Shown here one piece after another: positions 15,601 to 36,200 of a stretch of DNA of 64,000 bases. The notes under the pieces were generated by a model, which saw only the letters and a program-made list of their open reading frames with translations, was not told where the DNA came from and did not search any database. The stretch covers positions 992,001-1,056,000 of the forward strand of contig CM022673.1 of assembly GCA_012295275.1 (NCBI GenBank), written 5' to 3'. Position numbers and translations under genes: made by a program. Numbering within the stretch: position 1 is the first letter of the stretch; each line of letters starts with the position of its first letter. Source of the stretch: Chrysomallon squamiferum. Taxonomy: Eukaryota; Animalia; Mollusca.

Positions 15601-18600
15601 GAATTAATATAACCATAAGGAACAAAGGAAATAAAAGTAGATTAAATTGTGTTCATAATAATTTTGTGTTTCTCCCTGCATTTTAAAATATTGGAATTCT
15701 TTTTCATCAGATTAATGCACGTTAAGATAAATTTTGCTCATGTACCTCTGCCCAGCTGTACATTCCATTTTTGCTTTTCAGTTTCTATATAACAGAGCCC
15801 TTCTCTTGCAGGTCCTGCCAATACAGAGAACCCACCTGAAGATGGCAAACTAAAGAGTGAAATGATTGTCAAGGATAACAGACGGTATTACCTTGACCTT
15901 AAAGAGAACCAGCGTGGAAGATTCCTAAGAGTAAGTAGAATATATAATGAAAGTCCTGAAACAGATTAAGCTAATAAAAAATGAAAACAGACACACACAT
16001 CCAGCTTTACAAGAAAAACTGGAATTAGTTTTAATGACTTAACTTTTAATTTTTAATTTTCACATTCAGTGTCCTCAAAACATGTAAAAGAATTAGTTAT
16101 CCATTGAAAGTGGATAATACAAGAAATGTATTTAATGCAAATGCATGAACATTTTCTGTTTAAAATATTTCTATTCTGAAATGGTTTGTAATATTAAAGT
16201 GTTTTTTTTAAAAATACATCGAAGAAAGATAAGCACTCAACACGTTAAAATCTATGGTTAAGAGACATTCTACACTGATTAAGGATTAAGTAGATTTAGT
16301 GAGGAAATAAGTCACACAGTAGACTGTGCATTTTCAGTTGGGAGTTTCTTGTATGTACTTGATACTCTTGAGCCAGGGACAAGAAATAGTCCAATATGCT
16401 GAAGAGAATTAATTCAGAATACTGTCTATGTTTTAGCCTTCCACTTTAGCATCAAAATCATAGTCTCTCTCCCTTGTTAAATGCCATATTAATACAAAAT
16501 TTATAAAAATATTCCACATATATACTTTTTTTTAATGGTTGTGGCTCATCAAGTTATTAAATAATTTTAGTTTGTGAGTGTTTAAGATTTTTATTCTTTT
16601 TGTGGTTTAAAAGAACTATTTACAAGACTTGTTATTATATAAATTTCTTAAGGATTTAATAATATATAATAATGCAAATAAAAATACATCAGTGCAGTAT
16701 TTTGCTAGATTTCCACTTTGCCATTTTATGCATATATTTTTCATGTGTATGTGTGTGTGTGTGTGCCATTTTATTTTTCAAATAACAGTTTATCCAGTGC
16801 TATTTTTTTCACTATCCCTAGCATCTAATTTATTTAACTTTAAGCTGAAGTGTTCATTTTATAAGTATGTAAATGGTTTTGTAAATGTTTAAAGTTAATA
16901 GTTAAAGGTTGTAATTTGTTTGCCTTGAGCATTAATATTTAACACTTTTATTGTTTTGGGGCATTTTTAAATTTCAGTAAGGAGAATAACATTTGTTTTC
17001 CACAGGTTTCACAAACCATACCACGAGGAGGTCCACGTTCACAAATCGCTATACCCGCACAAGGCATGATCGAATTCAGAGATGCTCTCACAGAGCTACT
17101 TGACGAATTTGGCACCGATGATCAAGGTGAGGATGGTAAGATCACAATTTGTATGTCTTACAATAAAATGATTTAATCAATCCAAGGTTTGTATCTTTTT
17201 CTAATGAATTGTTGTTTTGTTTGGACTGTTTTTACTAAACTGGGTGTACATTCTGTCTTATTGTTTGTTTTTTCTACTGTTTTGTTTGTATTGTTTTCTG
17301 CTAGGCCGATTGTGTAATGTGTTGTAGTAGTTTGTATGTTTTATGCCAAGCTGGTTCAGTTCTGTGTTTTATAAGTTGATTATCTGTGTACCATTTGGAG
17401 CCTGCAAAAATTTGTTCCAACCATTTCTTTCTAAGCTGTATAGTATTAAATAAAGCTTTTAATTTGTAGGACATTCTGCTTAACTGTTATTTTTAATAAA
17501 AAATGTTTTGTAAAACTGAAGCTGTGGTTTGTACTAATTAATGTAACCTAGCTATATTACATATTAATGATACGAAATGTATAAATTTGGCATTATTTTA
17601 TACTAATCTAAAACTTGTCTTGGCAGCTTTTATCAAACATTATTTTATCAAACAAAGTTACAGTTGTAACCTAATAAATGCCAGTATTAAAATGCATTTA
17701 TAGGTTATTAAACATTGATTATTTTCATTTGTTATATATAAAAGAAAATTTCTTGCTCTGTGTTTCAAATTTGTATATGTTTGTCTTATGTTTACATTTA
17801 AAGGATGTCCAGTATTCTGTTTTAATGGCTGGAACTAACATACTTACTTGCATTAATTACAATAACCCTTTATTTGTAATTTACATCATAAAAAACCATA
17901 TATAATAAAAATAATGAAGAAATGATTCATTTAATACCATTCTGTTTAATATTTAAATATTTCAGGTTGCTCGTTATGTGTATGTACAAATCGCATGAAG
18001 AATGGATTAATTTTTTATAAAAATAATAACTAAATATTTTATGATCTTAATAATCAATGGAATCAAATTACTCAAAATTGCTTATACATGAGTATGCAAC
18101 AATGTCCAAAGACGCTGATACAAATCCAAAAATTTCCATTCAAATATTTTCCATGCTGCATATTACTTAAAGAGTTACTTCAAATTTCAGAACCTCAAAG
18201 TGAACTACCAGAAAGCCGATCAATGCGAGTAGAAAACAAAATGTTCTATTTTGACGTCGGCTCAAATAGAAGAGGAGTATATATGCGTGTATCAGAGGTA
18301 AGAAACTCATTATGTTACATGTATACTCATCAGTGATGGAAACTCCTTTTAAAATTAAGCAAACAAAAATAAAAACTTAGTTATAGAGTTAATGCAGTTA
18401 AATATTACACTGAACACTATTAGTGATTAAACAAATGCAGTGTTTTTAGGAAAGGAATGTGTTGCTTGAAATTTATTTCTTTTTTTCGTATTATTTCCCC
18501 ATATTTTTTATTTTTATTTTTATTTTATTTTTAAATCCTTTAATGTGGTGAAAAAATGGTTATCCGTAGGAAATTTATCTGAAATCCTTATATGCTAGCA

Positions 18601-21313
18601 TGTAAAAAATACTGATTCATTTAATTTTTATAATTTTAAATTTAACTATTAAAAATGTTTAAAGTTTTCAGCATTATAATTGTTAAATTGCAAATTAAAA
18701 GCAAAAACTAAAATTGTGACATCTGTAATTATATTTAAAAACTAATGATACTGTCAAATTTGTAATTTCATAATCCTTTTTAATTGTTTAACCTTTTTAC
18801 TTCTGTGCATCCTGTTAGTTTTTGTCTTATGGGCATTATAGTGGATTTGAATTTTCTTTGTCATTTTTTTTTTTTTAATTTAAAATAATTTTATTTAAAA
18901 ATAAATTAATTTTTAAAAAAATCAAAAATTCAGTTCTTCATTTTTCATTTTCATTGTCCATCTCATTCTGTCATCATGTTACGTGCTTTGTCATGCTTCC
19001 CTTGGTAACTGTTTATTTTTTATTTTGTTTTTATTTATTTTTTCATCTTTCTATGTCATTTCTTCCACAGTCTCACAATCTGTAATACCATGTTCAACAA
19101 AGCTCAAAGTTTTATATAAAAAATTCAAAAAAAAAAAAGAAAAACAATTTCAACAAACTTTCTTTGTCAGTTGTTTCTAAATGTTAAAATCTGCAAATTG
19201 TTTTTAGTTACTTTACTAGTCTTCTCTCCAGTTGATAAACACTGAAAATGAGTTGCATTCAACAAAAATCAAAATCTTTGATAGCATAGTAACAGTAACA
19301 TGAGCTTATAAACAGAAATAAGACAAAATATTGACTGATAAAAACGCAAAGAGAGTACTGAATTTCTGTCCAGTCTAACAAGTGAGGCTTTAAACTTTCA
19401 CAAAAAAAAGGAAATCATTCCGACTATAAATGTTCATTTGATATAAAGAAACTGCTCAGATTACAGTTGTTAATTATATTATATAGATAAATGCAGTAGT
19501 GTTTCCATTTTTATTTAGCATCTGTTGCTTTTTACTGTATGCTAATGTGTTCACAGTATGTAAATGCAAACATACATGACTTTAAATGTTAATCTTATTG
19601 GATTAGAAAGAAATTATTTGGCAAATCTTTAGTATCTTTTTTGTACATGGTAAAAAAAAAAGCTATTGTAATTCTGGGGATTTTTTGTTCAATTTTTTTT
19701 TTTATATATATAAATTTTTCTACCTATAATTATTTTTGGTAATATTAAATTGAAATATTTATTTACAATAAAGAAAAAACACTTGAAAAATACCAGATTC
19801 ATAAAAATTAAAATTTAATATTTTGTGATACAAGTGTATTGTACCAAAAATCTGATAATGGATGGGATAATCTTTACCTTTTTTTTTCTCCCTTTAAATT
19901 TTATTGATTAATTTTTTTTTCTCTCATTTAAATTCCATTTCTTCCTCTTTTTTTAATTTTATTTAATTTTATTTGTTTTTTAAATTATATTTGTGAAAAA
20001 TGTAAATACGGTCAAATTCAGGATTAAATACACCATTAATTTTTGTGAAATACAGTTTCTGCATTGTGTCCTGACTTTTACAAGATTTTGTTTATCTGGC
20101 ATCTGTTTCAAATATAACAAAAACAAAATTGTGAATTCATGGCAGTTCTGGAATGTTCTAAAAAAAATGCGTATCATTCAAAATAAAGTGCTACCAAAAT
20201 ATTATTTTTTAAATCCAAACTGTAAACTGCAAATACTATGATTTAGTTTTGGTTCTGGATGTTTACTTGACATTTATTTTATGAATTTCTTAAAAAAAGG
20301 TTATGTTGTGCGTTGTGTGTAAACACAGCAGGGTTTTGCAAAAGATTGGCATACAGTTTCCACAGTCTTTAAGCTGTAACTCTTTTTTCAGGTGGTCTCT
20401 GGGTATGATTCACGGAATTATAGATCGAGTCCTCAGGTAAAATTATTGTCTTCTAGGTGATGTTTTATGTAACTGTTAGATTTGGTTGGTGTAGCCATGT
20501 CATCTTTTCCTTAACATTTCTCTAAGCCTCACCTTGAATATTTAAATATATGACTCTTTCTTTGGTACATGGTAATACAGATAGAGCTGTCCTTTTTTCT
20601 GTTTTGTACTTCTGTTTGTAATCCCTTTGTTTCATCAGTGCATTCATGTTACTGTTCATCATTGTAATCATGACATCATCATCATCAAGATTTATGTCCA
20701 TTACTACTACTAGTATTAGTTTATTTTCATTGTCATGGTAAGAAATGAATAATACTGGGGGGATACTTATTATAAACAGATTTTTTCTTTATGATTGATA
20801 CTGAAGTTATATATTTTCTACATTCTATTTAACACCTTTTTTAAGCAACTGCAGCATATGTGAATGCATGCACTGATAAATTTTTTGTTTCAGTGCAGAT
20901 TTAGATAGTGTACGTAAACTCAATAAAAGGGATTTGAAGAATCTGTTAAACTGTTAGCTACCTTTAAATTGTTTGTAAATCATATCACTATAACAATTTT
21001 TTTTTTTTCAATTTTGTGACAACCAACATTTTTTATAGCCCATTTGTTTAGAATTATGTAAATTAAAAGTTCATACCATTTAGTGAAATGTGCATGTTTT
21101 CTATTACAATGAAAGTTTTATTACGGGTTTTTGGTTTATTTTCTAAATTTGATTTGTTTTAAAAAAAAAAAAACATTTTACCTTCCATTGATTATTTTAC
21201 AGGTTCGAAATAACTTCCGTACTGCCATCACCATTCCAGAGCGATCATGGGCCAGGTTTCGTGATGTACTTTCGGAATTTGTGGACCGGCCCGACAAGAA
21301 GGAGTCCCAGTAG
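7845..21313 (+). CDS. PURA: Transcriptional activator / ssDNA-RNA binding protein Pur-alpha (three PUR repeats), about 244 aa
   Basis: Exons 7845-7902, 12638-12744, 13203-13305, 15812-15930, 17006-17135 (alternative donor 17126), 18191-18297, 21203-21313, all GT-AG and in phase. PUR motifs: [89 protein letters not shown]. The exon 1 donor (AG|GTTATT) is weak, so the N-terminal exon is less certain. Confidence 0.95.
14393..14407 (+). CDS. PURA: Candidate 15-nt Pur-alpha microexon (EDNDD)
   Basis: cttttcgtgttttttgcag|AGGACAATGATGATA|gtaagt; phase 1-1, matching the surrounding intron; no stop. Confidence 0.65.
20392..20436 (+). CDS. PURA: Candidate 45-nt Pur-alpha cassette exon ([15 protein letters not shown])
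   Basis: ctcttttttcag|GTGGTC...CCTCAG|gtaaaa; phase 0-0, open in the Pur frame. Confidence 0.7.
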
Positions 21314-23509: not shown

Positions 23510-25660
23510 TTATTTTTTTTTATTATTTTTTTTTAGTAAGTTATATTTATGTGTTGTATTAAGTATTGCACTCTGGTTATCACTGGAAGTTTATATAACT
23601 CATTCTTGTTACTCGGGGTTTTCTCAATTTTTTTTTTTTTTTTTTTTTTTTGTTGCTGTTGCATGCCTTACACAAAATAATTTTGGGCTTCTTGTTATTT
23701 TGTGATAATTTATTAAAAAAAAAAATTAAGCTGTGATCAATTGGCTTGCCATGTACCTAGATGACCACAGGGACAAGTACTGGATTTACAATTAACCCTT
23801 GTGATTGTTCCAAAATTCATCTTGGCAAGTACTGTAGAGGTGTAGGGTACACAACTTGATGAGCATATTTATCTATTCTGACTTAATTTTTATTTCCAGT
23901 TAAACATTAAAATGTTGACATTTGATGCATTTCTGCAGAGCTTCCACCCCATGTACCATCCTGAAACATGGAATATGTCATTTACACTGGGTAGCAGAAG
24001 TGGGTTTTGTATTTTATAGTTGACACTTAAGTTAATACTAACCTAATGAAAGCTCTTTCTCTATAAGTGACCTATGCATCAGTTTTAGATCTAATTTTTC
24101 ACATCAAGTGCTCTCTCTTCTCATCTTTTGTTATATTTATATTGTACATGTAGGGTTAAAAAATCTTTGAAAAAATAGAGGCAGGAGTAAAATCCCACAT
24201 AAATAAAAATATTTTAGTAATTTCAGAAATTATATTTTAGTCAACATGGTGACACAAATGGCATCAAATCTAAGTTTTGTTTGTAGTAATAGATTAAGCA
24301 GGTTATATGTACCAGAATATTAAATTCTAACAGCAATTATATGGGAAATGTAGTTCTACAGAGTAGTTAAATAACTTTGTTTTATTAAAATAATAATTTA
24401 TTTCTCCAACTTCAAATTGTTCAATACTGTGCTTGTCTAGTTACTACTTTCAAACTAAAAATTACAATTAAAAATAATGGCAGTATTTATTTGCATATAA
24501 AAAGTATTTATTACCATATGATTTATTAAAGAAAAAATATAATAAGCAATATGCATTTTTATCTACTGATTCTGATAACATTTTGTTTTTAGATTTTAAT
24601 ATTAGATTAGTTGTTTGTTTGTTTTTTTAACAGGAGTTCAAAACAAATTAATATTTTATTCATACTAAACCATTTCATTGTATTTTTCCATACCATCAAC
24701 ACTGTTTAAATGAAGAATACCACCTTTTGTTTTTACATTGCAGCTACATAGATCAGCTTTTCCCTATGTCCTACATAAAGATGGAAATAGTAACTTTTTA
24801 TAATCAGGTTTAAATGTATCCTATGTTAATAACATCTGAAAAAAAAAAGAAGAAAAATTACATTTTTGCTCTGTAAATAGCTCTATAAATTTATACATTT
24901 TTAGCTTTAATTTAAAATGTTCAATGAAAGAATAGATGCATACATAATGTTAACATGCAACATGAAAAAAAAAATTTAACGTAAGAATTAGTAATGGAAA
25001 AATAACTTAATTTCACTGGCACCATACTTTAAATATATATTATTAAATTTAAAAATTTTAAATTGTCCATATTTTATACAGTTTTTGGCTTTTCCGGGAT
25101 ATTTTTTTTGTTGTTGAATTTTTAAAAGAATTGTATCTTAAAAAGGATCGTTCAACATTTTTGGAAACTTTTTTTTCCTGATGACACATATTTATTAATG
25201 TTTCTTTTGCTCTATCACTAAAAAAAAAAAAACCAGTAATAATAATTTTTATTTAATGAAAGGGGGAAATTTTAGGATGTAGAGAACAATTTTTATTAAT
25301 GCAGACTGTTTTCCATTCTTTTTAAGATTTAAAAAAAAAAAAAAAAAATGTTGAACCATCCCATTTGTTCTCTCTCCATCCATGATGTACATTTTGGTCA
25401 GATCGAATGATATTACCCACCCTCTCCAGAATTGTTTGTTGTTGAATCTTATTTACTAGAATATTTCAAAGTGCTCCAATAACTGTTAAACAATGGAAGA
25501 GTATAGAGAAGCCCAAAGACATTATTTTTTTAGGTAGGTTCTTAGAGGTGTTTCAAGGTTGTAATTGCAGTTTAAACTGTACAGTACTTTTACTTAACAA
25601 TGGAAACATGTTCTAAAATTGTTGTGCATCCATTAAATATATACTGTTGATACCTGTGTT
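21314..25660 (+). other. Probable long Pur-alpha 3' UTR
   Basis: No coding exon follows the stop. U-rich sequence with several AATAAA and a distal ATTAAA (25632-25637) followed by a GU/U-rich tract. The 3' end is inferred. Confidence 0.5.
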
Positions 25661-26024
25661 ATGTTTTTTGTTTAACTACATCATTTCCATTTTATTATTC
25701 AGTAACAAGTTTTATCAACTCCATGATCATTTACATTAGAATGCATGAAGAACATGAACATAAAATGGACACTTGTGTATTAACAGTGGAAAGTATCTGC
25801 AAGTTAATAAATATTAAGACTAAGAACTGAACAAAGGAATTGTTATTTTAGGTCACATTTTGGCACCAATGATTTTTGATAATGAATTCAAGATGTGAAT
25901 ATGCATCTGTACTATTCTCATTATTTCTATTTAAGTGGAATGAAGATAAAATTGGAACAGAAAGTTCCAATTTGTTTCGGTGTTCAAAAAGAAAAAAATT
26001 ACAAACCAAATAAATGAAAAATTA

Positions 26025-26030
26025 TTTATT
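26025..26030 (-). terminator. Polyadenylation signal AATAAA of the SNF/U1A gene
   Basis: Plus-strand TTTATT about 390 nt past the stop, followed on the minus strand by U/GU-rich sequence. Confidence 0.7.
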
Positions 26031-26064
26031 AAAAGTCCAAATAAATGAAATTAAATGAGATGAA

Positions 26065-26165
26065 TTGCTACAGCAGGTATGTGCAATGTTGCCGTCTGAA
26101 GATCAAACGGGCCAACACCTGTGCAATGCTGAGCAAGTAAAAATGAATGGCTTGGTGCAATGCCA
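26065..26165 (-). promoter_or_regulatory. PIE-like autoregulatory RNA element with three AUUGCAC U1A-binding boxes
   Basis: ATTGCAC on the minus strand at 26161-26155, 26127-26121 and 26087-26081. Flanking complementary arms TGGC/GCCA, TTGCTCAGC/GCTGTAGCAA, AGGT/ACCT, GTTG/CAAC and CCGTTTG/CAGACGG. About 35 nt upstream of AATAAA. Confidence 0.85.
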
Positions 26166-26421
26166 CGAATTATCAGAACTTGATGAAATGATCCTACCTT
26201 TCCCTACAAACCATGAACACAATCTCCTGAATGAATTTTCCACGCAGCAATACCACATCCAAAACAGATATGTATAGGAGAATGTCTGGTAGGCAGTTGA
26301 AATGTACACTCCTAAATGAAAATTCACTCAACCGACATTATTCTTTTAAACAATACTTTTGCATTTTGTTCACCATTACATAAGAGGGTCTTCCTGCACA
26401 GCACAGCACTATTTTATCAGT

Positions 26422-28567
26422 TTACTTCTTAGCAAATGAGATTTTCATAGCATTTGTTGGCGTAATCTTAAATCCTTGAAGTGCTTCTTTTGCTGCTCCT
26501 GCCTGACTGTCTATTTCAAATTCTACAAAGGCTATGTCATGTCGACCTGGTACCAAACGAACTTCTTTAAAACCAGGAAATCTAAAGGGAAACAAATTCA
26601 TAAAAGGGATTATATTAGAGAAAAACATCCCATCAGTACTACACTTTGATGTAACAGTTAATTATCAATAATCTGTGAAAACCTATATTTTAACATTAAA
26701 AAAACAACAACTTCACCACCTGAAAAATGATAGTACAAACGAAGAAAAACGGGCAAATAAACTTCAGAATATAATCTGCAGCCAATCAAATGTTAACAGA
26801 GAAATTTGTAAATAATCTGAAATAGAAAATCCTTTTGCTGACAGTAATTAATAAATTTACGGTAATTTAGCATTGCTATTCTGTCACAATCTGATAACAT
26901 CAAACTTACTGATTAAAAAGCATGGACAACATCATTTCATTGGTTTCTTCAGGCAGGTTGGTGATGAAGAGAATCTGGTTAGGAGGTTGTTCAGGAATAG
27001 CTGTAGGAGCTGGAACTGGTACTGCAGCAGATGGTACTGAAAAAAAAAAAAAAAAAAACATATAAATTAAAAACTGGAATATTTTGCTAAATTTTTAATC
27101 CAATACACATATACTGGGTTCTACAAGACACCATATTTGTTGACAAATAAACATTTAAATTATATTTATTTCATTTCAATGTAACAAAAAAATAAAAAAA
27201 ACCAACAGTCTCTGAAAAGTCTAAATTGTTTAGATTAAGCCCTCATTTATATTCTGTAATTTACATGTAATGATCTGTAATTATCAAAAGCACAGCAAAT
27301 AACAAAATTGTTTCCAATTTTCACGTCACAGACATTTTAAGCATGTTTGAAAATAAACGTAGTAAAGATACAATGTAGAAAAAGACGGTCATACCTGCTA
27401 CTGTGGGCTGTGGTTGGTGAGCAGCTGGCTGAATTGGTGGGGCACGAGCTATTGGAGGTGCAGATCTTTAAAAAAATTAAATAAATATATACATTAATAT
27501 TCTCATTACAAAAGTTTTTATTTAATCAAGTAACTGCTTAAAACAGTTAAACATTAATGATTAACATTGTAAGCTTCAAAAAAAATAATAGATAGGAATT
27601 TATTGCAGAATACATATTAATAATCAGAATATAACCAAGAGATTCTAAATAAAAACATAAGCCAGAAAACAGCTATTTGTAGTATTTAATTACACTTACT
27701 TTGTAGGTTTAGCCTGTGTGGCCTGACCTTTCTTCTTTTTTCGTGGCTCTTCATCTTCTCTTTTACGTTTTGGTTCCTCTACATAAGTGCCCTTCATTTT
27801 TGAGATGATGTGTGAATCTTTTTTCGAAAACTGAATTCTCTGTAAAAGAATTTTAAAATTATTTAAATGATGTTCATTTTGGAACAGCCGATATTTTGTT
27901 TGTTACTGGAAAAATAAGCAAAAAAAACAAACAAAAAAACACTCCAGTTAAACAAAACAAAAAATGTACAATGTTTTGATACTAGTAAGAACAGCTGAGG
28001 TTGCAGGATGCAACTATTTAAAAATGCTTACCATGGGTTTATCATAGAATGGAAATCCTTGCATGGACCGCATAGCACTGGCCGCACTGTTCACATCTTT
28101 GAAAATGACAAAAGCCTGACCTCTCATTTTCAGTGTTTTTAATGCAACAATATCAAGAATTTGTCCAAACTGAGAAAATATAGCATATAGAGATTTCTTC
28201 AACTCTGAAAGAAAAAAAGAATTCAAAAACATAAAAGCCACCAACAACATCTTAGTAAATTTTATTTTAATCTTAGATATGTTTAAAAGTGATATTAGAT
28301 CGGTGACAAAAAAATATATATTAAATTACTAAGTGACATAATGACTGCCACAGAATTAACTTAGGACAAATTATGTATGCTATGTATACTTAAAGTTACA
28401 CAGAATATCAGAACATTATTCATTTGACAAACACCATCCTAAGGATGTCCAAATTCATCTGGAAACATGACAAATTTTATAAATAAATTTGAGTATAACC
28501 TACCATCCTTTTTGATTTTTTCATTCAGGTTGTTAATATATACGGTGTGATTTGGTGCAGCAGACAT
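26422..28567 (-). CDS. SNRPA: U1 snRNP A / U2B'' family protein (SNF-type, two RRMs), 244 aa
   Basis: Exons 28567-28504, 28204-28032, 27839-27700, 27465-27395, 27036-26910, 26581-26422 in phase. Motifs: [52 protein letters not shown] and [47 protein letters not shown]...MKISFAKK. Confidence 0.97.
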
Positions 28568-29172
28568 AGCTTTGTTGTTGTTGTAAGACTGAAAACAGAT
28601 AAAAATATTAAGTGTACATCAACTCTTTGTTACCAGACATTTCAGTTATTATTTTGAAGTTACTTTTTGTTTTAAAGCTAATGCTGATACAAAAAGGTGA
28701 TATTAAAAAAACTGCCTAAACCCACTTCAGATAAAATCAACCAATTTGCAGGCAACCGTGTGTTCACATATCCAATGTCAAGAACACAATGCTGATCTAT
28801 TCTTGGAAATGTACATGGCTTTTTACTTTCAAGTCACAATTACATCTGCACATACATCTGTTATATTTGCCAATATTGAAAAAATGTAGTTTTATTCTGT
28901 TTTATCTTTTCATATCTGAACTAGAAGTAGAAAACTAACAAAATACAGAGTTAAAACCTCTGCTAACTAAAGTTACTAAGGATAGACCAAAGGTGGTTAT
29001 ATCATATGACTTACTACTTAAAGTTAAAAGTGACAATGTCACAATCATGTTGTGAATGTTACATGGATTTTATATATATATATAATAATATATATATATT
29101 ATAATTTATATACACACGCGTGTGCGTTAAATCCAACACGTACGTGTGTGCGTGCGTGCGTGCGTGCGAGCG

Positions 29173-30231: not shown

Positions 30232-33200
30232 GTATCGTTATTGAAATTTTGTTGTATTTGATGCATTATAAACACTGGTCTGCATGTATTTTATAGTACT
30301 ATGTTGCTATTGTTAGTTTTTATGCCTTGTAGTGCAACGTTTTTTATATCGTCTTTCTTAAATTGAAAACAGGATGAAATTAGGGGGTGTTTGTCATGTG
30401 ACAGATTATCGTGTTCTTGCTTTTATTTCAGCAAATCAATATTAATAATCGGTTATATTTACATATTTGAGGTACGTACATATTTGCTTGTTACCTTGAA
30501 TATTGATTTTGCTCAAGTTAATATTTAAACGAGCAACGGGTAAGGCCAAGTACTCAAACAGTGAAAACTTCCTCTTTTGAACTTTGGACAAATTACTAAA
30601 TTAGTAAATATTAAAATACTAAATTAAAATTGAGGCCTTCCGTGATAATCATAACGGAATGTGCATAAAACTATAATATGTCAAAAGGGGCAAAAAACAG
30701 CCAACTTAAATCCACTCTAAAATATGTTCAAAGAAATAGGTATGTCACTATGTCACTTGTCAGTATGTGACAATTTTCAAAGATATTATTTTCCAAAAGC
30801 TTATTAGAAAGACAAACAATACTGTGAATACATATTAAACTGACACCAAGATCTCTTGCAAAAAGTTACATTGAGGGTATTTTTTCTTCATAATCTATGG
30901 AGAAACTGATTCGTTTCTGTCATTTTGCAAACATAAACCCTGAATATCTCAGTTTTTATCCAGTATACATTTAATAAAAAAATGCTGCTTTTGATGAGTT
31001 CTAAAGGTGTACAGGTTGCTAATTAGTTCAAATATACTTTACGCCTTAATTATGTAATTCTCAAACACTCCATTTTGCTAACATTAATTTTTCACAGTTA
31101 ATTGTATCAATTAGTTTTAAATGTGTCACATGATCGTGTCTTCATTATACAGCTTTTACATTTCATAAACATCAAACCAGTGTGCATGAATTATATCTGA
31201 AATTAGTATTTTTGATAGGTTTAGAACCATCATGCCACAAGATACATGTATTCCTTACATTACACTACATAAATACTTGGTCACTCAAAAAACCAAAAAT
31301 GAAACATCAAATTTGTAAGACAATGGCCGTGGAGTCATTTGCTGAGAACACCAAGCATTTTGGTATCCAAAAATAAGTATCTGCTAACCAAATATTTATA
31401 TTAAATTTGTCAATATGAGAGAAGTAAATACTTTTTATTGTGTATGTGATTTAAAGTCTCAAGTAAGCTTACCTTTGTAACAGTTGATTGTTCATTTTTT
31501 AATCAAAGATGACATATGATAATCATTCTGTTCTTTTAATATTCTATTTTATTTATTTTATTTATTTTATTTATTTTATTTATTATTTTATTATTTTATT
31601 ATTTCATTATTTTATTTCATTATTTATTTATTCTAACTTGTTGCTAACCATCTGTATTTAGACAAGCATTCCTGAAATATGACAAATGATATTAAGTTAA
31701 ATAATCAGTTGTTTTTATTTATTACATCAAATGATATAAATGACTAATATTTTGTTTTAAATTTTTGCCATTATTTGTCAGTGATAATTATAGTAGTGAT
31801 AATATTAAATATTATAATTAATAACTCCCTACATAATGATAAAATAATGTTATTCTACGTATATGTGCCTCACAAATAAAGTAATCTATACTAATACATT
31901 AACAAGTTATACTACCCTCAGTTTCATCCTACTTAGCTGAGATAATTTTTTATCAGGTTAAATGTTTTTATTTTTTGACAAAAGAAAAGAAAACTATAAA
32001 AGAAGAACCAAATATCAAAAATAAATTGAATCCTTAAAATGTTGTTGTGTGTTGTGGTTTTTTTGTGGGTTTTTTTTTTTTGGTTAACTTTTAAAGAATC
32101 TAAATAGTTCCATTTCTACCAATTCTTCCTTTGTGTGAATTTATATTTACATCTTTTATTCATTTTAACTTCATTAATATTTTCTGTTATTACTTTTATT
32201 TGGTTTCTATTTATATATTTAATTTTTAAAATTTATTAATGGTTTTTTATTTTTATTTTTTTTTGATAATGGACCTAAATAATTCCAATTCTTCCTATGC
32301 ATGAATTTATATTTACATCTTTTATTCATTTTAGCTTCATTAATATTTTCTGTTATTACTTTTATTTATTTTGTAGTTATGTATTTTATTTATTTATTTA
32401 ATTATTTATTATTATTTTTATTATTTTCGCAGAGTTTTTTTGGATTTGGGCAGAGTGCCGAAATAGACATTGTTCTTGAAGGACAGGATTCCCGTAAGAC
32501 TGCTGAGATTAAAACAGAAGATGGTAAAAAAGAAAGATATTACTTGTACTATGATGGTGAAACAGTTTCTGGAAAGGTAAATTTTAAATTTGTGTTCTTT
32601 TCTCTTTTTTATTTTTATTTTTTTATTTAATTGATGATGATGATCTGGTTTTATTTTAGGACTTTATCATTAGTTAGCATGTTGTTCACATTAATTCAGT
32701 TTAATAAGTGTGTATTGAAGGAACTGACAAATTATCATCATTATCTTAAAATCTATCTTTTTAATGCAGTTAAATTTGATAATCATAAATACAGCAGACT
32801 ACTAAATAAGAAAAAGGTTTTGTTTATCTGATTTGTGAAGCAAAATTAAGGTTGCATCCTGATAACAAGCCAGCTGGTTGAATTAATGAACTGTTCTGTT
32901 GCAAAGAATTTAAAGAAAATGAGGTTAAAATTGTGACTGTTACAATTTTATTATCAGTTCTCTGAAGTAAAAAATCTGAAATCAAATAAAAATCTTAAAA
33001 TAAAATGTTTAAATTCTTATTATAGGTCAATGTTACCCTGAAGAAATCAGGAAGCAAGCTTGAACATCAAGGAATAAAAATAGAATTTGTAGGTCAAATT
33101 GGTAAGTAGTTACATAATAAAAGAAGTGTAATTTAATTATATTTGTTGAATATTTTCATTTGTATATTATTTTTAGAATTTTATCATTCCTAATTAGCTA

Positions 33201-36200
33201 TAAGAAGTTGTCTGTTTTTGGGGGTGGAGTGAGGGGCAAGATCAGTTTTTAATTTTTTGATACATGAAGTTCCTAAATTTCAGAATGGTTTTATAACTAA
33301 TAATCATTTCTCATTAATTTTTTTTTTTTTTTTTTTTCATTTCTGTTTTACTTTTTTATTTTTGTTATTTTCATTTCTATTTTAATTTATAATTTATATA
33401 TATATATTTTTTTTTTTTTTAGAATTGTACTATGACAGAGGAAATCATCATGAATTTACTTCACTTGTGAAAGAATTGGCACGACCAGGGGAGCTAACTC
33501 AAAATGCCAGTTACAGCTTCGAGTTTCAACAAGTAGAGAAACCTTACGAATCATATACGGGTGCCAATGTTAGATTAAGGTGAGTGACCTTTAGAAATTA
33601 TCATTTATTTTATTTCTGAAAGTTTTAAAATAACAATAATGTGTGTGTTTTATATTGTGGGAACAGAAGTTGGGTTTGTTTGATAATATTTACTGAAAGT
33701 TGTGTTATTTTGTGTCTGTGCATGTGAGATTAGGATTAGTATTCTTTTGGGAGAGGTGTAAATTAAGCATTCCCTCTTTATAATAATAGAATAATGATTA
33801 TGGTTTGAATTGGATTTACAGATATTTTCTTCGAGTTACAATTGTGAAACGACTAACAGATGTGGTGAAGGAACAGGATATTGTTGTGCACACACTGTCG
33901 CAATATCCTGATATGAACAATAGCATAAAAATGGAGGTTGGAATAGAAGACTGTCTACATATAGAATTTGAATACAACAAGTCAAAGTAAGATACTACAG
34001 CATGTATGTTTGTGTTCGTGTTATATTTAATAATTTGTTACCATCAGTTAAAATATTATACAACATCTACTCTAATTTATGCAGAATGAACAATAAAGGT
34101 TCAGTATTTTTAAAGTTTGATTTCATAATTTAAAAAAAATAACAATAGATTTCTTGATGGGGTTTTGTTTTGTGTGTGTGTGTTAGGTTTGCAACAAAAA
34201 ACCAAAATGAAATCATTAGATTGTTATTTGATATTTTCAAAACAGATAAATTGTGGAAAATAAGATATTTAATTCTTAAGTACATTTTATTACACATTTT
34301 ATTACCAAAAAAGTATTGTGTGATTTAAATATAATTTGAAATAAATAACTAAAAAATGTATACAATCAAAAGCTGGTAACATAGTACTACACTTTGTTTT
34401 TATACCTTAGTCCACAATTTTGTGCCATTTTATTTGATTTTATTATCACTTTTTGTTTTCCCCAAACCAAATTAAAATGTATAAACAAATGGAAATAAAA
34501 TGTAAAAACATATTGACAGCATTTAGAATATGTTACTATAAATCTGTTTCATTGCTTACTGAAGATATCATCTCAAGGATGTGATTGTCGGTAAAATATA
34601 CTTCTTGCTGGTTCGAATAAAGATTCGCTATATGGAACTAGCAATTGTGCGTCGAGAATCCACTGGTGCAGGTACTGTGGTTAGAAAGGTCACTGTCTGA
34701 CTCTATTGCTTTCTCATTGGCTTATTGCAGTGAAAACCTCTATATTAGATGTGCATGTTGTTTTTGTTGGCTCAATGCAAGTTACTATATGAACAAGATT
34801 ACATGTTCTGTTGGCTCAGTACATTTTACTGTATATACAGATTTACATGTTTTGTAGGCTCAAAAACAGGTTATTGAAAAATTCAGTTTACTTTTGCTGT
34901 AAACAGAGCTTACAATTCTTTTGTGAGCCTAAGAACAAGTCACTGTATATACATGAATCCATGTTTGTGGTCTGTGTTGCTGTTGTTGTTGTTTTTATTT
35001 ACCCTTTTTTTGGTTTTATGACTGTTGTATCATTTTTACTTTTAATTTAGAAAATGTTTTCAAAATTGCCATGATTGTTGTCGATCATGACTTGATTTAT
35101 TTAAATATAATTTGTTGTTTTTTATATATATATATATATAACCAAAATTCCTTCTGCCTATCATCATAGCAACAACTGCATTTAGCCAGCAGCAGCCATT
35201 ATGCATGTTTGTTTTTATTCTGGTGGTTTTTGTGGCTTCATTTCCAAGTTTTTGTTTCATTTTTATTTTTGTTTTGAAACAGGTATCACTTAAAAGATGT
35301 AATAGTTGGCAAGATTTACTTCCTTCTTGTTCGGATAAAAATCAAGCACATGGAGGTTCAAATAATTAAAAGAGAAACAACAGGGACAGGTACAAACATT
35401 TGAGTTTTCATAACAAGCAGCAGTGTTTTCTATTTCTTTATTCCAACATCAACAGTTATTTAAAAGGGAAGATGTAGCTGCACATAACAAACAGTTTAAT
35501 AAAATAACCTGTAATGTAGAGGAGCTGTAATAAGCACAGTTAATAATAATAATTTTAAAAAAGAAAGATGCTTTAACATTTGCAGTATTATTAAAAACCA
35601 TAGGAAAAAAGAAAGCTAAATATATATCTTTTCGTGATATTTTGAGAAAGCTGTCAGATGATCAAACTTCAGTTGTTAAATTTCTATTGTTTATCAAATT
35701 TAAAAGAACAAGCTGGTTAATGCTGAACAGGACTATCCATTACAAAAAAATGGATGTATCTTTCATTAATGAGCCATCATGTTATTTGACTAGAATCCTC
35801 CAAAACATTGTCAGGTAAACATGTAAAAATAAGAGACATAAAAATATTATTGAGATAAAGATTTGTGTGGTTTTTTTTCACTTGTAAGGATTTTTTGCCA
35901 TATTTTCTCATTTGTTGTGAAAGTTTTAATTAGTTTAGTCATATCATAATTTATTGTCTTGTAAAGTATATTTATTTCTTCTTTTTTTTTAAATGTTATT
36001 TTGAATGTTGTATTAAGTACTCGTGTCTTGATTAATTGTACTAGATATATTTTATTTTAATTATTTTAATTTGTTTTACTTTTATTATTATTTTGTTTTT
36101 CTTTAAAATTATTTCTTACAAAAAAACAAAAAACTCACACACTTGTGTAACTTAGGTATCTTTACATTCTGCAAGTTTTATTTTTTATTCTTAATTTTAT

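Follow-up and report, generated by a model that had tools for sequence, protein, structure and literature searches.

Autoregulation of U1A is a textbook feedback loop, and the accounts of it that we found place it in vertebrates and describe it as absent in plants. In humans, two U1A molecules on the polyadenylation inhibition element (PIE) block poly(A) polymerase (PAP) via its last 20 residues (PMC2874999, PMC6884704), and PIE action is aided by an upstream 5'-splice-site-like U1 site (PMC3157836). The vertebrate PIE (Rfam RF00460) lies in the 3' UTR of its cognate gene, above AAUAAA, at a conserved distance to the poly(A) signal (PMC6884704). Its two AUUG(C/U)AC boxes, each closed by a C-G pair, lie one on each strand of a single stem, separated by a 4-bp helix.

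U1A reads AUUGCAC together with a closing C-G pair in loops of varied size (PMC2203988), and in U1 snRNA stem-loop II (SLII) the loop has 10 bases and a C-G closing pair (PMC4114683). The protein from before the duplication that gave U1A and U2B'' bound SLII tightly (PMC4114683), and a 10-nt loop of this type was the RNA in a crystal structure of Drosophila SNF (PMC5992148); neither of these two sources mentions PIE or polyadenylation. PIE-like sites of the U1A family also lie near the poly(A) signals of SMN and IgM, where they affect 3'-end processing (PMC9977717, PMC2874999), but those are heterologous human targets, whereas the sites described here belong to an invertebrate and lie in the mRNA that encodes the protein itself. 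Arabidopsis U1A belongs to the same protein family, yet it is reported neither to bind its own 3' UTR nor to dimerise (PMC5829640), so not all eukaryotes share such self-binding in the 3' UTR.

An earlier note on the DNA studied here (the window, a stretch of 64 kb analysed as a whole) had described a PIE in the 3' UTR of an invertebrate snf gene, while knowing the element from vertebrates only. Our full-text literature search likewise found no report of sites in an invertebrate snf 3' UTR, an agreement that extends to the texts within its reach, the primary PIE papers lying beyond it. Judged from sequence, the general result is a set of predicted SLII-mimic arrays in invertebrate snf 3' UTRs, with a predicted cross-paired form in molluscs. 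We propose that surplus SNF binds three boxes in its own mRNA and curbs 3'-end formation of that mRNA, which we think somewhat probable.

The snf gene and its transcript

The snf (U1A/U2B'') gene of the window lies on the minus strand and has six coding exons with GT-AG borders and a product of 244 amino acids. Four of its five introns are joints listed for contigs of two RNA runs from one study, and the fifth fits the spacing inside one contig (X8 record 21). Its parts are as follows.

28504..28567, minus: coding exon 1, with ATG at 28567; exon up to about 28590; joint 28204/28504
28032..28204, minus: coding exon 2, RRM1 core with SNF-type VALKT loop (RNA contigs, PDB matches, Pfam RRM_1)
27700..27839, minus: coding exon 3, end of RRM1, helix C and basic linker (gene model and RNA contigs)
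27729..27791, minus: basic segment, aligned with human U1A residues about 99-118 (protein alignment)
27395..27465, minus: coding exon 4, Pro/Ala/Gln linker (gene model and RNA contigs)
26910..27036, minus: coding exon 5, linker and start of RRM2 (gene model and RNA contigs)
26422..26581, minus: coding part of the last exon, RRM2, stop TAA at 26424-26422 (RNA contigs, protein domains)
25841..26421, minus: 3' UTR up to the reach of a spliced RNA contig (X5 record 9)
26025..26030, minus: AAUAAA, candidate proximal poly(A) signal, then a U/GU-rich stretch (sequence)

Two RRMs and a VALKT in the beta2/loop 3 region of RRM1 mark the product as SNF type, which separates the gene from the U1A genes that carry the vertebrate PIE. 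The VALKT loop is shared with the best PDB matches, 6f4g_B and 2k3k_A, whereas human U1A chains differ there; VALKT alone is no proof of a single-copy SNF, since human U2B'' carries it too (PMC4114683). The nearest named homologues among 120 stored are from Patella, Haliotis, and Lottia (76-80% identity), and a FastTree phylogeny of 53 proteins groups the window SNF with Haliotis (support 0.94), which points to a gastropod as the probable source of the DNA. The SNF-type RRM1 stretch and the basic segment that the earlier note had read here are both present in the 244-amino-acid protein. The note had also taken the basic segment as a pointer to PIE-type action, a use that we rejected. Although the segment matches human U1A (E 8.8e-06) better than U2B'' (2.1e-04), it is found family-wide, including in proteins of insects, whose sampled loci lack the boxes, and so it is not diagnostic of a PAP mechanism.

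RNA contigs place the boxes within the transcribed, spliced snf mRNA. One spliced contig (X5 record 9) has 0 differences to the window over 25841-26581, and the exon 1 contig piece comprises 28504-28590 plus a 124-nt loose end; additional 5' sequence comes from upstream. In these contigs the mRNA runs past the element; an end before it would have spoken against a PIE. An AAUAAA had been placed about 35 nt below the element; it is present at 26030-26025, 34 nt from the element's end and 50 nt from the last box, but contigs run past it in 2/2 runs, by 61 and 184 nt, and leave its use unconfirmed. Spliced contigs end at 25964 (X8 record 20) and 25841 (X5 record 9), and a second AAUAAA stands at 25696. 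Because contigs show neither ends nor levels, and intron-containing contigs are also present in X5, the run-through neither confirms nor excludes the proximal AAUAAA as the used signal.

This crossing of the proximal signal is what one would expect if SNF binding steered the choice between the proximal (26030) and distal poly(A) sites, or stabilised the mRNA, and imposed no brake at all. Human U1A shifts poly(A)-site use in IgM (PMC2874999), and genome-wide it raises expression more often than it lowers it (PMC9136276). However, the limits of the contigs apply here as well, and the sole well-studied case of self-binding in the U1A/SNF family is repressive (PMC2874999, PMC6884704); we regard a role of this kind as quite improbable. 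Across 4 runs, the absence of polymorphism inside the element was set aside as uninformative, divergence being under 1%.

AUUGCAC boxes and their predicted folds

The proposed brake would act through the following features of the 3' UTR.

26190..26200, minus: 5'-splice-site-like word AAG/GUAGGA, weak candidate U1 snRNP site, 39 nt above box A
26147..26166, minus: box A hairpin GUGGC-[AUUGCAC CAA]-GCCAU, with 5-bp stem, 10-nt loop and C-G closing pair
26065..26136, minus: cross-paired PIE-like element, predicted; middle helix only with boxes open
26135-26128 with 26074-26066, minus: outer stem of the element, predicted
26121..26127, minus: box B, AUUGCAC; preceding C26128 paired to G26074
26120-26117 with 26078-26075, minus: middle helix of the element, 4 bp, predicted
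26116-26113 with 26091-26088, minus: inner stem of the element, predicted
26110-26092, minus: distal arm of the element, predicted
26081..26087, minus: box C, AUUGCAC; preceding C26088 paired to G26116

The 72-nt element of the earlier note lies exactly at 26136-26065, inside the snf 3' UTR; the note had counted two boxes, and the 3' UTR has three copies of C-AUUGCAC, the third at 26161-26155. Over both strands of the 64-kb window, CATTGCAC has just 3 copies, all within 82 nt, and ATTGYAC occurs 22 times against 30 expected.

Box A resembles U1 SLII. Its AUUGCAC stands at the 5' side of a C-G-closed, 10-nt loop on a stem of at least 4 bp, an arrangement shared with many of the invertebrate sites described below, and its free fold adds 3 pairs within the loop. 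Unlike SLII, these sites are in mRNA, often in 2-5 copies whose stems are unrelated. The 64-kb window holds no U1 snRNA at the Rfam gathering score.

Boxes B and C are predicted to pair in a different manner. With the boxes constrained to be unpaired, the PIE-like fold is the best one, at -22.3 kcal/mol (z -4.6); shuffles that kept the boxes and their C averaged -10.05 +/- 2.67, and 0/2000 reached -22.3. The middle helix then has a probability of 0.96-0.98, versus 0.01 in the free ensemble. The free fold, at -27.6 kcal/mol (z -2.87), pairs the UGCA cores of boxes B and C with each other. The fold of three stacked stems that had been drawn from the sequence is thus the best when the boxes are open, but it gives way to core pairing in the free fold. 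The outer and inner closing stems persist in both folds, and the C-G pairs closing boxes B and C have probabilities of 1.0 and 0.98 in the free ensemble. A reading of boxes B and C as two separate hairpins was rejected on energy, the cross form being 12.5 kcal/mol better. Natural PIEs are likewise predicted to fold poorly into their target structure (PMC1933236).

The layout recalls the vertebrate PIE in several respects: position in the cognate 3' UTR above AAUAAA, two C-G-closed boxes, which prediction places on opposite strands of one stem, and a 4-bp helix separating the boxes, in the window solely when these are open. PIE internal loops are of 7+1 nt, with one unpaired base opposite each box. 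The earlier note had likened the boxes of the window to the internal loops of the human PIE. In the predicted structure, boxes B and C form bulges of 7 and 9 nt with zero nt opposite (7+0 and 9+0) rather than equal internal loops, where the vertebrate PIE has asymmetric internal loops (PMC1903381). Scoring with the Rfam U1A_PIE model (RF00460), which had been suggested as a check, gave no match in the window, at the gathering score or at E<=10, and none at E<=10 in the bivalve-like locus L016, both scans being without a positive control; Rfam scans of the two sequences returned only sub-threshold chance matches. The third, hairpin-type site and a signal distance that is not fixed among relatives are further differences. 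The window element is therefore PIE-like in layout, yet its predicted loop geometry and its Rfam score fall outside PIE.

A possible further likeness is the candidate 5'-splice-site-like word upstream, which mammalian PIEs also have (PMC3157836). Two such words occur in 1200 nt, against 0.5 expected, and the RNA contigs of 2 runs contain no splice joint at the 26200-26190 word.

Sites in the snf 3' UTRs of other invertebrates

Relatives came from a scan with the last exon; the best 80 of 310 were kept, a sample biased to close matches, and dereplicated to 46 clusters, of which up to 1200 nt after the stop were counted (40,201 nt over 46 loci). Among these loci AUUGCAC occurs 49 times, versus about 4.9 expected from dinucleotide shuffles summed over four groups, and elsewhere in the same loci it occurs 2 times in 61,705 nt upstream and 2 times in 25,453 nt further downstream. 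At least one C-box is present in 18/46 clusters and at least two in 15/46, again among the best 80 of 310 relatives. All 49 boxes fall in 24 clusters, a set defined afterwards by a last-exon signature, where 2.1 were expected and 200 shuffles reached a maximum of 7.

Box-bearing loci, as placed by tree or best match, include mollusc-like ones (caenogastropod-like L002 and L003, heterobranch-like L022, bivalve-like L016 and L031), annelid-like ones (L013, L023, and L037, all with weak support), the chelicerate-like L060, and the copepod-like L059, L063, L066, and L078. The 28/46 clusters with no C-box comprise 19/19 of two unplaced groups, 3/3 insect-like clusters, and 6/24 others, for which only 202-532 nt of sequence, possibly incomplete, were available. 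AUUGCAC is absent from the two unplaced groups, KESQS (L004-L068, 10 clusters) and PMKI (L033-L080, 9 clusters), over as much as 1200 nt past the stop; should the groups be paralogues within a single lineage, sites may have been lost after duplication. A search of genome contigs added L082, an insect-like locus whose first 360 nt or so past the stop contain no box, and 1 short spurious match; a search of viral contigs gave 1 unrelated locus and no useful snf relative. The L082 contig has 1068 nt, with an intron end followed by an insect-like snf last exon; its record is titled as a bacterial MAG, and it is probably eukaryotic contamination of that assembly. The word CAUUGUAC, which stands just below the signal in 3 of 4 insect-like loci that are nearly identical, was discarded as a candidate site: L072 lacks it, and it does not fold into an SLII-like hairpin.

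The context of the boxes is that of an SLII site. Counting the window's 3, C precedes 50/52 boxes, and 37/52 close a stem of at least 4 bp, versus 11.9% of 750 control positions; 20 of these 37 have a 10-nt loop as in U1 SLII. Such features bear on whether the boxes are chance words or serve another protein, for instance one of the RBPMS/couch-potato family, which binds GCAC motifs (PMC5311487). The ordinary frequency of ATTGYAC in the window would suit that explanation. However, the full 7-mer, the preceding C, the stem-closing 3' G, and the 10-nt loop amount to SLII recognition and are specific to snf 3' UTRs, and the three CATTGCAC copies of the window are tightly clustered; we therefore judge another reader, or chance, very improbable indeed.

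Most of the invertebrate sites are plain hairpins, often in arrays of 2-5 with unrelated stems. Arrays of 3-6 boxes with near-identical stems in L005 (UTR 178-370), L025 (77-360), L042 (137-262), and L076 (229-375) look like recent tandem hairpin duplications, to judge by their stems, and degenerate additional hairpins with one-base changes occur in L013, L023, L042, and L070. The three boxes retained in each of the copepod-like L063, L066, and L078 have poorly paired surroundings; the first two boxes share UGC-AUUGCAC-N3/4-GG(A/G)G and conserved downstream words, and this context is possibly a distinct structural variant. The first box of the bivalve-like L016 and L031 is similarly poorly paired.

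Fold energies of two hairpins and of the cross-paired form were compared for 22 box pairs. The cross fold is ahead by more than 4 kcal/mol in 5/22, namely the window (12.5), L003 (8.8), L002 (6.8), L023 (5.2), and L016 (4.1); besides the window, three of these (L002, L003, and L016) are mollusc-like. In pairs of duplicated hairpins the two energies are often near equal because identical stems can swap partners. One stem position is diagnostic in the window, L016, L002, and L003: the cross form makes two Watson-Crick pairs there (one of them G.U in L003), versus a G.U and an A/C mismatch when two hairpins form. L023 lacks a position of this kind. L002 and L003 match the layout of the window, one hairpin and then one cross pair, and between them all 13 pairs are kept (26/26 cells), with one G-C to A-U double change; their covariation, from two sequences only, does not exceed a shuffle control (255/500). 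For L002/L003 and L016 the folding does not predict the tail pairing that makes the middle helix, although it is possible in L016, so as modelled the middle helix is special to the window. The relatives (best 80 of 310) included no near counterpart of the window's own element. We infer that a strand swap between two SLII-like tandem hairpins accounts for PIE geometry.

Two further comparisons concern what surrounds the boxes. First, the last box is followed by AAUAAA or AUUAAA after 50 nt in the window and after 65-513 nt in relatives. Second, 5'-splice-site-like words over the 24 clusters number 20, versus 11.3 +/- 3.5 expected, a weak excess given that at least 1 of 60 shuffles reached 21. 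They adjoin or separate boxes in L002 (UTR 644), L003 (1033), L013 (266, 340, and 848), L016 (844), and L031 (219), and in L002/L003 the word lies inside an arm of the cross pair.

These comparisons are relevant to a loop in which SNF binds the boxes and limits itself at a step other than 3'-end formation, either through cytoplasmic translation or mRNA decay or through U1-assisted splicing in the 3' UTR followed by NMD. Plain hairpin arrays at variable distance from the poly(A) signal do not suggest a fixed contact with PAP, whose C-terminal target is reportedly conserved in vertebrates and not in flies (PMC9136276), and splice-site-like words stand next to boxes in the window and in L002/L003, L013, L016, and L031. 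Against this, the excess of such words is modest, no splice joint appears in the 3' UTR in 2 RNA runs (though decay targets could be missed there), and the pair in the window is predicted to fold into the PIE topology for two proteins, with a canonical AAUAAA 34 nt below it and a U/GU-rich stretch beyond that signal. On balance, we consider self-limitation at such other steps unlikely.

A putative self-limiting loop and its setting

The favored reading, a brake on 3'-end formation, starts from the SNF-type RRM1 protein and the boxes in its spliced mRNA, and from the strong statistical enrichment of C-closed boxes in the snf 3' UTRs of many invertebrates. Any SNF left over by U1 and U2 snRNA would bind the boxes. 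In the window, binding would have to spend about 5-6 kcal/mol on separating the UGCA cores of boxes B and C; the 4-bp middle helix could then form and set two proteins side by side. Binding would lower SNF output, conceivably by a block of poly(A) polymerase as on the human PIE, perhaps with help from U1 snRNP at the splice-site-like word.

The steps differ in strength. SNF binding to these predicted sites is very likely, because U1A reads the same motif, a crystal structure shows Drosophila SNF on a loop of this type, and SLII was bound tightly by the protein that preceded the duplication. That the boxes mediate negative feedback on SNF is likely. Inhibition of poly(A) polymerase as the effector step is possible but somewhat doubtful, since the variable gap to the signal, the fly PAP tail, and the family-wide basic segment all count against it.

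The earlier note had proposed that PIE feedback predates the split of U1A and U2B''. The age of the self-binding fits the data better than the form: sites for it occur widely in the snf 3' UTRs of invertebrates, and therefore SNF self-binding, as deduced from its sites, very probably predates the vertebrate split, but the common form in invertebrates is the hairpin array, not PIE. A fuller scenario, which we offer tentatively and with slightly more doubt than belief, is that SLII decoys in the 3' UTR were the ancestral bilaterian means of SNF self-limitation, lost in insects, for example. The vertebrate PIE and the mollusc element would both be strand-swapped tandem hairpins, the mollusc element would be a cooperative, PIE-type brake on polyadenylation, and PIE geometry would have arisen before the split or repeatedly.

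Should SNF bind these sites, the loop would predate U1A by far and would have governed a single protein shared by the U1 and U2 snRNPs. The lack of sites in the insect-like loci sampled may explain why work in flies missed it. The series from tandem hairpins, through pairs with near-equal hairpin and cross energies, to fixed cross stems offers a testable route to PIE and its cooperativity, and it raises the question of whether the vertebrate contact with the PAP tail is an ancestral effector step or a later addition.

The neighbors of snf in the window are a PurA gene and a Vps26 gene, both on the plus strand, and two features belong to its immediate surroundings.

32283-33987, plus: Vps26 gene exons, divergent from snf
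25128-25650, plus: transcript end with poly(A) tail at 25650 (RNA contigs)

The latter transcript is convergent with snf, comes within about 190 nt of where the longest snf contig stops, and may be a long 3' UTR of the PurA gene, whose exons lie near 18034-21310.
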